Part shown: positions 1-27,376 of the stretch, piece after piece
Layout: the number at the start of each line of letters is the position of its first letter
Position numbering within the stretch: position 1 is the stretch's first letter
Origin: Candidatus Thorarchaeota archaeon
GTDB taxonomy: Archaea; Asgardarchaeota; Thorarchaeia; Thorarchaeales; Thorarchaeaceae
Length of the DNA stretch: 47,989 nucleotides
Assembly: GCA_029856425.1 (NCBI GenBank)
Contig: JAHQWZ010000001.1
Location: 1-47,989 of the forward strand
Direction: 5' to 3'
The notes under the pieces: model-generated
The model's database searches: none
Told to the model about the DNA's origin: nothing
The model's input: only the letters and a program-made list of their open reading frames with translations
Position numbers and translations under genes: made by a program

Positions 1-843
1 GCACAGCAATTTAACATGACAGCAAATGCCGTTAAGAAGCGAGTTCAGAAGCTGATTGATACAGGTGTGATTGTACAATTTACTGCCGAGCTATCCCCCG
101 CTATGGTTGATGGTGAGAATTTCCTCGCTGTAATTTCCACTGATGGAGGAGAGAACGAGGAGGAATTCCTCCATCTAATAGGATCGCACACGCTAGTGAG
201 AGAGGTTGGTATATTATCTGGTTCTTCGTATCTAACAATGGGTACATCCATCGGCTCAGAGAGCCTTAGAGACCTTGGCAGCTTTCTTCGAGGATTTGAG
301 AATGTAAGGAGTGTTGAGTTGCACACCCTCGTGAAGGATGCGATTCATGGAAAAAAGACCGACCTAACCAAACTCCAACTCAGAGTCTTGAGGTGCCTCG
401 TCAAAAATCCGCGAATGCCCACCAAAGAAATCTCAGAGCTTACAGGACTTACAGTCAGAAGAACACGAACAAATATCAACAAGCTTCTAGAGAGCGGAGC
501 AGTTTCTCTCGGGATTAGATGGAATCTAAGCGCAGGAGATGGCTTTGTATTTCTTTTGAGAATTCATTGGGATGAGAAAACTGGGAGTCTGGAAGATGTG
601 CTCGTTTTTATTGGTCAAAACTTCCCTGTGGCATTCTACGGTCCATTGATATCAGCTACTGAGCCAATAATTTTCGCGGTTTTTGTGGTTGAACAATTCA
701 AGGATGCGGATTTAATATCAAAAAGGATTGCTGGGGCACCTTTTGTGGCATCTTGTCAGGCGCTTTTTGGCAGACCGTCGGTAAGCTTTCCTGATATACG
801 CAATGCTCGTCTTGAAGAAATCCTCAAGGGTGCTGGACTTTAG
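1..843 (+). CDS. Lrp/AsnC-family regulator with tandem (HTH + RAM-like) x2 architecture; 5' end cut by window edge
   Basis: Frame 1 is open from base 1. AQQFNMTANAVKKRVQKLIDTGVI looks like the end of an AsnC-type HTH and is followed by a RAM-like segment. A second complete unit follows: LQLRVLRCLVKNPRMPTKEISELTGLTVRRTRTNINKLLESGAV plus a second RAM-like segment. Confidence 0.6.
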   Translation, partial: AQQFNMTANAVKKRVQKLIDTGVIVQFTAELSPAMVDGENFLAVISTDGGENEEEFLHLIGSHTLVREVGILSGSSYLTMGTSIGSESLRDLGSFLRGFENVRSVELHTLVKDAIHGKKTDLTKLQLRVLRCLVKNPRMPTKEISELTGLTVRRTRTNINKLLESGAVSLGIRWNLSAGDGFVFLLRIHWDEKTGSLEDVLVFIGQNFPVAFYGPLISATEPIIFAVFVVEQFKDADLISKRIAGAPFVASCQALFGRPSVSFPDIRNARLEEILKGAGL

Positions 844-983
844 ACTCTATCAATCATTAATGTGAACTTTTGGGTTCACAGAATACGTTTCTCCAATACA
901 TTGTCAAGCCCTTACTGAACTTTCTGGCACACACGAATAGAATTGCAGTTTCTACCTATTCTTGGTATAGGTGATATGGAAAA

Positions 984-1763
984 ATGCAGTTCACGATTGA
1001 ACAGACATTGAAGGAAGCCAAAGGATCTGCTATTGAAATGAAGAATCTAACTAAGAGATTCGGGAACTTCACAGCAGTTGATGGGCTTCGTCTTGACATT
1101 GGATGGGGTGAAATCTTTGGCCTTCTAGGACCAAATGGGGCCGGAAAAACAACCACAGTCAACATGCTCTCTACTTTGCTGGATCCAACTGAAGGTGAGG
1201 CTACGGTAGCTGGGCACGATGTTGTGAAGAACGCCAATGAAGTTCGGAAGGTGATCGGCCTATGCCCCCAACAACCAGCGTACTTTCCATACCTAACTGG
1301 TCGGGAAAACATAGAGCTATTTGGCCAGCTCTTTTCCTTGCCTTCAAAACTACTGAATGAACGAATCGAGCTTTTAGCTAAAAGGGTTGGTATGGAGGAT
1401 GATATCGACCGTCGTGCTAGCCATTATAGTGGTGGTATGATACGTCGAGTCAGCACAATCATGGCACTGATTCATAATCCCTCTGTTGCTCTGCTTGACG
1501 AGCCAACAGTCGCAATGGACCCAGTGTCTCGTCGTTCAGTCTGGGACTTCATCAAGGAACTAAGAAGTCAAGACAAAACAATCATCCTCACAACTCATTA
1601 CATGGAAGAAGCGCAGGAACTCTCAGACAGAGTGGGGATTATCGATGAAGGCAGATTGATTGAACTTGGTCCACCTCAGGAGCTGATAGACAAATACGAA
1701 GTCGAAGACTTGGAAGAGGTCTTTGTACTGAGAACGGGCAAGAGGCTGAGGGAGGGGGTCTAG
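984..1763 (+). CDS. ABC transporter ATP-binding protein (ABC-2/DrrA-like)
   Basis: Walker A GPNGAGKTT, signature YSGGMIRRV, Walker B LLDEPT. The stop abuts the permease start. Confidence 0.9.
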   Translation: MQFTIEQTLKEAKGSAIEMKNLTKRFGNFTAVDGLRLDIGWGEIFGLLGPNGAGKTTTVNMLSTLLDPTEGEATVAGHDVVKNANEVRKVIGLCPQQPAYFPYLTGRENIELFGQLFSLPSKLLNERIELLAKRVGMEDDIDRRASHYSGGMIRRVSTIMALIHNPSVALLDEPTVAMDPVSRRSVWDFIKELRSQDKTIILTTHYMEEAQELSDRVGIIDEGRLIELGPPQELIDKYEVEDLEEVFVLRTGKRLREGV

Positions 1764-26108: not shown

Positions 26109-27239
26109 CTACTCTGTTTCTGAACCCTCTGCTCTCTTGATACGCTCTCGAATAGCCTCTATATGTTTACCTTTCTGCTCTAATTCATCCTTCTTTCGCT
26201 GGTTTGTCTTCACATATTCGTCATATGCATCTGCCCACTCTTGCCTTGTCTTACTGATTTGCCGTTTCAGATGTTCATACATCATTCTCTTGACATGCAC
26301 AGTATTTCTCAAATTGAGAAGGGCTGTATCCAGTCCCGATATGACGTTCGTTAGTTCCGATTCAGCTCTCTTCAGCTCAGCATGTAGATTGACAATCTCG
26401 GCTGATGGTCGTTCAACCTGTTCTATTTGAGGAGCAGAATCGGATGCTGACAATACAGTTCTATCAACTTCAGGTCCACTCTTCTCCAAAGGAAATACCG
26501 TTTCACTGCTTCTAGCCTCATCTGGTATTGAAGGTGCTATGAAATCAGAATTGGGCGTCTGCTGGATCTGAGCTTGCTCTGGAGAAGTAGGTTGTACATC
26601 TTCTATGGGAGTGGGCTTATCTTCTCGAAGTTTTGTAGGTGCAATCTTCTTCAAACCAATGAGACGGCCATCTGCTTTGTCAATCATCATTTCAGCAAGT
26701 TTCTTGAAGGCCTCATCTATATTCTCTCCAGTCAATGCTGATGCCTCGATGAAGATGGACGGGGTATTCATCTTCTCACCAAATCTCTCCGTGAATTCCA
26801 ACCCTTCCTCGTATGATACGGTTTCTTCTTTCGGATGATTTGGCCTTAGGTCGATCTTGTTACCAACGATAATGAGAGGGGGTAGATCGCCCATGAATCC
26901 GTGGGCTTCAACAAGCCATTTTGATGCATTGTCGAAGGATTCTCTGTCTACCACGGAATACACAAGAATCAGACCACTACTTCCATCATAATACCGTCTT
27001 CGGAGGCCTTGAAACAGAGGTTGGCCAGCGATGTCCCAGATTATCAAATAAATGGGTTTCTTATCCATCTGAAGAGTTTTCTGGGCAAAATCCACTCCCA
27101 GAGTCGCGATGTAACTTCTCTTGAATACTTGGCCTAAAAATGTTCGACGAATACTCGTCTTTCCTACAAATCCGTCGCCAATCAAGCAAACCTTGAACTG
27201 CTTACGGAGAGGGTCGAGTGAAATAGATATTCCCTCCAT
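26109..27239 (-). CDS. Rab/Ras-superfamily small GTPase with a roughly 190-aa linker and coiled-coil C-terminal extension
   Basis: G1 GDGFVGKTS, switch I TLGVDF, G3 WDIAGQ, G4 GNKIDL, G5 EASALTG. A P/S/E/Q-rich linker and a heptad-rich tail follow (NLHAELKRAESELTN...EQKGKHIEAIRERIKRAE). No CaaX or CC terminus. Confidence 0.85.
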   Translation of the reverse strand: MEGISISLDPLRKQFKVCLIGDGFVGKTSIRRTFLGQVFKRSYIATLGVDFAQKTLQMDKKPIYLIIWDIAGQPLFQGLRRRYYDGSSGLILVYSVVDRESFDNASKWLVEAHGFMGDLPPLIIVGNKIDLRPNHPKEETVSYEEGLEFTERFGEKMNTPSIFIEASALTGENIDEAFKKLAEMMIDKADGRLIGLKKIAPTKLREDKPTPIEDVQPTSPEQAQIQQTPNSDFIAPSIPDEARSSETVFPLEKSGPEVDRTVLSASDSAPQIEQVERPSAEIVNLHAELKRAESELTNVISGLDTALLNLRNTVHVKRMMYEHLKRQISKTRQEWADAYDEYVKTNQRKKDELEQKGKHIEAIRERIKRAEGSETE

Positions 27240-27376
27240 TCATGTGAGGCAGCGCGGTTATACTAGCTTTTTGTCACTTATAGTGATATTTCGGCTATGC
27301 AAATGAGCCGTGTGAGCCTTCTATTGTATCACCCTAGTATCACCTTGAAGTTATTCGAGAACTGCTTCGAGTGATG

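Follow-up and report, generated by a model that had tools for sequence, protein, structure and literature searches.

A Rab-like GTPase joined to a putative coiled-coil rod module restricted to one family of Thorarchaeia

The stretch of Thorarchaeial DNA analysed here (the window, 47,989 nucleotides) encodes at 26109..27239, on the minus strand, a protein of 376 aa in which a RasL/Rab-like GTPase is followed by a linker and a C-terminal rod. Judged by sequence comparison, this rod is an undescribed, family-restricted coiled-coil module with no relative in Pfam or the PDB. We give an even chance to the reading that the rod self-associates, probably in antiparallel fashion, positioning the switch via protein contacts in this one Thorarchaeial family. 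The earlier proposal that the tail may supply localisation or oligomerisation is plausible. New here are the phylum-wide boundary of the module, observations that speak against an obligate hetero-complex, and the finding that both rod ends were lost together. Restricted as it is to a single family, and lacking a counterpart in eukaryotes, the module has no direct bearing on eukaryogenesis. It does offer a testable alternative for the localisation of Asgard Rab-like GTPases (a conserved protein rod on a flexible tether), and it represents a domain family not described before, sharply bounded in its taxonomic range and combined with several types of head. Matched constructs for biochemistry are supplied by the family itself: rod alone, rod with GTPase, and rod with zinc ribbon.

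The gene and its GTPase domain

The gene is a single ORF with an ATG start, no internal stop, and its stop codon at 26109-26111. AlphaFold2 (AF2), using an alignment of 36 sequences, divides the product into a Ras-like alpha/beta domain, a segment of low pLDDT, and one helix; ORF and model together bear out the three-part architecture (G domain, linker, helical tail) as first described. The same architecture in one ORF occurs at 54 loci in species-level genomes, and more than 100 full-length database homologues cover 95-100% of the query, so the tail is indeed kept together with the G domain in relatives. In addition, contigs from two DNA runs belonging to different studies cover the entire gene with substitutions only and no indels. 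That the fusion arose from faulty assembly, a frameshift or gene calling, a concern voiced in the original prediction, can therefore be dismissed for all practical purposes. A few members of the family show irregularities of their own. One MAG holds two Rab-fused copies with identical scores on two contigs (L005 and L006; G065:C18 and C21), probably through assembly redundancy and not by real duplication. An in-frame TAG lies in the conserved rod block of the Rab-fused orthologue L154 (G073:C16:20042-20377, minus strand) at the position equivalent to K325, and a second genome (G031:C154:26937-27263) has two TAG; these codons could reflect a pseudogene, a sequencing error or recoding.

The G domain (aa 13-189; 26673..27203, minus strand) was delimited from Pfam, 7EZB and Foldseek. 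All the Rab/Ras-style G boxes listed in the original prediction are there: GDGFVGKTS (21-29), TLGVDF (46-51), WDIAGQ (68-73), GNKIDL (126-131) and EASALTG (165-171). Among the 36 homologues their cores are invariant or nearly so: G1 GDGFVGKT (aa 21-28; 27156-27179) is near-invariant, and the columns of G3 DIAGQ including the catalytic Gln (aa 69-73; 27021-27035), G4 NKID (aa 127-130; 26850-26861) and G5 SAL (aa 167-169; 26733-26741), all on the minus strand, are invariant. With these boxes so well kept, the domain looks like a working, catalytically competent switch. The family P-loop reads GDG[YF]VGKT (aa 21-28), with an aromatic residue at the Ras G13 equivalent where Thor-Rab has Ala and Rab1 has Gly. 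Pfam assigns aa 16-185 to Ras (PF00071; E 9e-41, 139.6 bits against a cut-off of 21.6), with far weaker matches to Roc (92.6) and Arf (46.1), and the sole NCBIfam match is the generic small-GTP domain TIGR00231 (72.1 against a threshold of 42.5). The top PDB sequence match is Thor-Rab (7EZB; E 5.6e-34, 120.7 bits), and Rab1A scores 110 bits; after Thor-Rab the best 60 matches consist only of Rab1, Ypt1, Rab4, Rab6, Rab8, Rab14 and Sec4. With Foldseek, Rabs and Thor-Rab fill nearly all of the top 50 places, one Rac being among them (TM 0.74-0.83 on the target).

MglA-type GTPases have a variant G3 without the Asp of DxxGQ and a cognate MglB/roadblock partner gene. Neither feature was found here: the G3 is the canonical DIAGQ, there is no roadblock gene on the contig, and no MglA occurs among the best 60 PDB matches. 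Together with the roughly 50 Foldseek matches to Rabs, Thor-Rab and one Rac, this shows that the G domain is not MglA-like, contrary to a doubt raised at the outset. The five RabF motifs reportedly given by Pereira-Leal and Seabra are IGVDF, KLQIW, RFrsiT, YYRGA and LVYDIT. In the alignment to Rab1A the corresponding segments are LGVDF (4/5), YLIIW (3/5), LFQGLR (1-2/6), YYDGS (3/5) and LVYSVV (4/6), so that RabF3 is all but missing; RabF motifs are also mentioned in the Thor-Rab survey (PMC10933270). Published trees place Asgard 'RasL' proteins of this kind outside the Rab clade proper: Vargova et al. (10.1101/2024.02.28.582541) report that they group with Rab/Ras/Rho/Ran and Rup1, none of them being specifically sister to Rabs. 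The label 'Rab-like' given to the protein earlier is sound as a statement of similarity only (best 60 PDB matches, Foldseek). With 7EZB as top match and a Pfam Ras score far above that of Arf, the protein is best classed, on present alignments, as an Asgard RasL/Rab-like GTPase and probably no true Rab.

Nothing in the protein resembles a lipid attachment site of the Rab kind. The only Cys is C18, in strand beta-1, and the C-terminus reads ...GSETE; hence there is no prenylation site, and none of the motifs CC, CXC or CCXX occurs at the C-terminus of the 376-aa protein. The reported absence of a C-terminal Cys is accordingly correct. Asgard Rab-like GTPases are without prenylation, and no prenylation machinery was found (PMC10933270). 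Thor-Rab (PDB 7EZB/7EZD/7EZE) shares with our protein the fold, the G5 'SALTGEN', the lack of a C-terminal Cys and the lineage, and is its best PDB match in the G domain. It is, however, a single domain of 182 aa, described as C-terminally truncated (PMC10933270), to which the present protein adds an 85-aa linker and a 100-aa rod. The same survey (Tran et al. 2024, PMC10933270) lists MKD1 GTPases fused to 'various domains of unknown function' and does not describe the rod module.

Twenty-one Ras-family loci were counted in the genome of the window, a 2.29-Mb MAG of 74.5% completeness. Elsewhere in the family, a close tail-less paralogue (L055, 62% identity) stands beside the tailed form (L054) in the same genome, and this coexistence indicates that the tail is a specific acquisition of one particular paralogue. 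Another close paralogue (L057:5989-6555, plus strand), whose G domain shows 60% identity, comes from a genome in which the tailed form (L017) is present too. Its sequence departs from the family just before G5 (FITRAF for FIETSAL) and ends after some 24 aa more, which may point to a frameshift or a pseudogene.

The rod module and its taxonomic range

Between the G domain and the rod lies a hypervariable linker (aa 190-275; 26415..26672, minus strand) that is predicted to be disordered, with an AF2 pLDDT of about 30 for aa 197-275. It is P/S/E/Q-rich as first reported (P 11, S 9, E 8, Q 7; net charge -5), and 85 aa long in place of the 95 or so then given. Among homologues it has no conserved columns and varies in length by about 0-100 residues, a variability like that of the eukaryotic Rab hypervariable region, although the linker here is longer. 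Its start (aa 190-221; 26577-26672, minus strand) contains a QLREDRPTAI-type motif present in the window's clade only, which reads TKLREDKPTPI in the window and may be a clade-specific linear motif.

The rod module (aa 276-376; 26112..26414, minus strand) is predicted to be one continuous heptad helix, modelled by AF2 without interruption over aa 276-375 (pLDDT 87-96). When the mean hydrophobicity of 52 aligned tails was tested for periodicity, the power amounted to 40.7 at period 3.5, 27 at 3.6, and 0.6-8 off the helical band; with its peak at 3.5, the heptad repeat is real. The heptad character claimed for the tail therefore holds, its length being about 100 aa and not 90. The tails alone (52 genomes) align with a mean column identity of 58%, and the residues N312, K317, H323, L324, T331, W335, A338 and Y339 are invariant in all 52. 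The length of the rod is nearly constant (113 aa in most clades), while that of the linker varies freely.

Conservation culminates in a central signature block (aa 305-342; 26214..26327, minus strand), which is conserved on all helical faces. In the heptad register, positions a are taken by L307, V314, Y321, L328, W335 and Y342, and positions d by L310, K317, L324, T331 and A338; K317, Y321, T331 and W335 are unusual core residues. Within the block the large a residues (Y321, W335, Y342) alternate with small d residues (T331, A338). Outward b/c/f positions (L308, N312, H315, V316, I319, H323) are near-invariant too. Such conservation on every face seems to exceed the needs of a plain two-stranded coiled coil, and would fit partner binding equally well. 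Along the rod the N-half is acidic and the C-half basic, the charge dipole being mild. Most family members also possess a conserved pre-helix cap (DPVTSL..DSxYLxEDxIGxxM) and a C-terminal extension (RxRVxxLDLKK): both are found in 110 members and neither in 29, the window's clade among the latter, and what looked like exceptions proved to be pattern misses, truncated ORFs or, in two cases, intermediates with partial degeneration. On a tree of the G domain only, it takes 3 changes to explain the bare state, and supported branches force at least 2 of these. Every other class of the module retains both cap and extension.

Searches of the PDB, Pfam and the ESM Atlas with the tail yielded no significant relatives. 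Its profile retrieved only coiled-coil noise from the PDB sequences (best E 0.029), and all Pfam matches of the window tail were below the gathering scores (LXG 18.5 against 26.5; MbeD_MobD 15.0 against 21.6). The 52 tails likewise gave only sub-threshold Pfam matches to many unrelated coiled-coil families. We rejected LXG and MbeD/MobD as identities for the tail, the matches being in our view compositional and scoring below gathering. No SNARE family was matched by the tail in Pfam, and there is no TM segment that could be the C-terminal membrane anchor of a SNARE; a search of the ESM Atlas with the tail gave no usable match. One full-length family member (P0051) is named 'MbeD/MobD family mobilization/exclusion protein' by NCBI, a name that seems to over-interpret the rod's weak coiled-coil match to PF04899.

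To the taxonomic range of the module we applied a survey of the Asgard phylum comprising 379 genomes at least 70% complete. In one GTDB family 69 of 79 genomes contained the module; in 31 other Asgard families, represented by 299 genomes, it was found in none. Of the 87 genomes in the class, 81 contain some copy of it, usually 3-5. The Rab-fused class is single-copy and present in 58 of the 87 class genomes and in 11 of the 17 genera; it is missing from entire genera, including genomes that are 97-98% complete. Among 1.84 billion cluster representatives, a profile search turned up only 47 proteins carrying the module, and all those with a named source organism are called Thorarchaeota. The original prediction saw in the tail a coiled coil, as its heptads confirm; it did not bring out that this is no generic coiled coil but a lineage-restricted module that also occurs on zinc-ribbon and stand-alone proteins.

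The module falls into at least four paralogous classes: one Rab-fused, two zinc-ribbon-fused, and one short and stand-alone. Besides the GTPase fusion, many of the proteins begin with a CxxCG...CxxCG zinc ribbon, which a long linker, acidic or Pro-rich, connects to the module; others are short. Profile-profile comparison (hhalign) aligns the modules across classes over 110 columns with 98.9% probability (E 3e-17). In a tree of 43 modules, the Rab-fused (100/100), the short (100/99) and one zinc-ribbon class (98/87) form clades, each spanning several genera. Closest to the Rab-fused rods comes the second zinc-ribbon class, and a long branch (1.05) separates the Rab-fused rods from the other classes. 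Proteins of the zinc-ribbon and short types share with the Rab-fused proteins a homologous C-terminal module, the disordered-linker design and the taxonomic range. They differ in having a CxxC...CxxC ribbon or no head where the latter have a GTPase, in the separate clades of their modules, and in lacking the Rab-type signature HVK(R/K)IMYEH...TRQEWADAY. In the databases they are annotated as 'hypothetical' or 'zinc-ribbon domain-containing protein'. The window's genome has three copies of the module: this gene, a zinc-ribbon-class gene truncated where its contig, C209, ends, and, on C98, a short form. A word-indexed search with the short form returned one relative and is no evidence of absence elsewhere. 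New head types were not found in a broad-profile search for longer proteins, which scored 8000 candidates and is not evidence of absence either.

Possible roles of the rod

According to the model that we prefer, a hypervariable linker without fixed structure would connect a RasL/Rab-like switch to a rod about 15 nm long. This rod would self-associate, most likely head-to-tail (antiparallel), the all-face-conserved central block would pack into a higher-order bundle or dock a partner, and the G domains would be displayed on flexible tethers from a protein scaffold. Three lines of reasoning suggest this. An amphipathic heptad helix of some 100 residues, as modelled by AF2, should be unstable as a monomer and has to be buried in an assembly. 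The joint loss of cap and C-terminal extension, a coupling that rests on only 2-3 events, suggests that the rod ends touch, as they do in antiparallel pairing. Finally, the acidic N-end and basic C-end, together with the alternation of large a and small d residues, favour antiparallel a-d' over parallel a-a' layers.

Linker and rod may in this way be the functional counterpart of the hypervariable region and prenyl anchor of eukaryotic Rabs, in that they would place the switch. Rab1/Ypt1, Rab8 and Sec4 rank first among its eukaryotic relatives both in sequence (about 110 bits) and in structure (TM about 0.8), and they have in common with our protein the order of G domain, hypervariable unstructured region and C-terminal targeting element. 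They differ from it in that here the prenylatable Cys is lacking, the RabF motifs are partial, and the putative targeting element is a protein rod and not a lipid. Single polypeptides that unite a Ras-superfamily G domain with a self-associating coiled coil are known among eukaryotic small GTPases: the large Rabs (CRACR2A/Rab46, Rab44, Rab45/RASEF) and ARL13B. In the large Rabs the EF-hands and coiled coil are N-terminal to the Rab domain and the protein is still prenylated, and ARL13B is Arf-like and palmitoylated. PDB sequence and Pfam searches with the tail detected no likeness of these proteins to the rod, which implies that the architecture arose independently.

Alternatively, the rod could serve mainly to dock a partner that is not one of its paralogues, for example a membrane protein, a component of the cytoskeleton or of ESCRT, or a GAP/GEF; its coiled-coil nature would then be needed for that complex and not for self-association. 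We consider this rather unlikely. The near-invariance of the block aa 305-342 also at its outward b/c/f positions speaks for such a partner, as does the long branch of the Rab-type rods, which look as if adapted to a specific contact. Against it, neither a conserved neighbour gene across the family nor any candidate partner was found, and the regular a/d hydrophobics along the whole 100-residue helix suggest more than a local site.

We regard as improbable a hetero-oligomeric scaffold with several kinds of head, in which the Rab-fused rod would assemble with its paralogues from the zinc-ribbon and short proteins. In its favour are the homology of the modules over 110 columns, the 3-5 copies, belonging to conserved classes, that most genomes encode, and the small GTPase gene that follows the zinc-ribbon-class gene in the window's genus; that adjacency is, however, limited to one genus (7 of 30 loci). 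Against it stands also the distribution of the classes: in five genomes 95-99% complete, from three genera, the Rab-fused rod is the only significant copy, and the genera g2, g10 and g16 have other module classes without a Rab-fused rod. Each can evidently exist without the other, which makes an obligate hetero-complex of paralogues unlikely. Somewhat more broadly, and as a decidedly speculative suggestion, the rod family might be a lineage-specific scaffold in which different heads (switch, zinc ribbons, or none) assemble via the central blocks into homo- or mixed bundles. If the scaffold reading were true, the system would amount to a GTP-regulated, protein-based tethering or positioning machine, evolved independently of the lipid-anchored eukaryotic Rabs.

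Two further readings were considered. Many eukaryotic Rab effectors bind the switch regions via coiled coils, and the long linker would permit the rod to bend back onto the G domain of its own chain and regulate it in cis, by auto-inhibition or by mimicking an effector. We think this very unlikely, because the AF2 monomer model (pTM 0.48) leaves the helix undocked from the G domain, and because the same module occurs on zinc-ribbon proteins and alone, where there is no G domain at all. Just as unlikely is a helix lying on the membrane as an amphipathic anchor and directly replacing the prenyl group. The conserved aromatics Y321, W335, Y339 and Y342, the many Lys/Arg, and the missing lipidation site would suit an anchor of this kind; the periodicity, however, is that of a coiled coil (3.5) and not 3.6, and the hydrophobic stripe is narrow, with acidic and basic flanks and an acidic patch (EWADAYDEY). 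A Thor-Rab-type protein, moreover, was not targeted to membranes in cells, in a construct that had no tail (PMC10933270).

Genomic context and expression

Upstream of the gene, on the same strand and separated by a gap of 137 nt, lies an RraA-like gene; the other neighbours are an AHSA1/SRPBCC gene downstream and an ATC-hydrolase-like gene. The statement that no roadblock/longin gene is adjacent is borne out by this neighbourhood, and the nine roadblock genes of the genome are all on other contigs. No GTPase regulator was found next to the gene in any clade of the family. A conserved operon was considered and rejected, the neighbours being clade-specific (RraA-like at 8 loci, UPF0047 at 20, MFS at 14) and unrelated to GTPase regulation. 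On another contig of the same genome, a roadblock gene (Robl_LC7; G000:C158:857-1072, minus strand) adjoins, in divergent orientation, the best-scoring Ras-family gene of the genome (1323-1808, plus strand). Other RasL paralogues, unlike this gene, thus have an adjacent roadblock partner.

The zinc-ribbon rod gene of the window's genome (G000:C209, L082; 2-508, plus strand) is followed after 120 nt by a small GTPase gene (629-1135, plus strand). This GTPase is a divergent protein of 168 aa with a degenerate G3 (FEFHEQ for DxxGQ) and the G4 TKLD. The pairing is kept only in the window's genus (L083-L089; 7 of 30 loci), and we did not accept it as a Rosetta-stone link between zinc-ribbon rods and GTPases, counting its occurrence in one genus as a single event.

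As to expression, two metatranscriptome libraries yielded short contigs, about 97% identical, that match the tail over 213 nt and the G domain over about 170 nt. They give only a weak hint of expression, and this in a relative, DNA carry-over being possible. The 137-nt gap after the RraA-like gene contains a TATA-like near-palindrome, CACTATAAGTG (27275..27285, minus strand), 39 nt upstream of the ATG, which is a candidate for the gene's own promoter.
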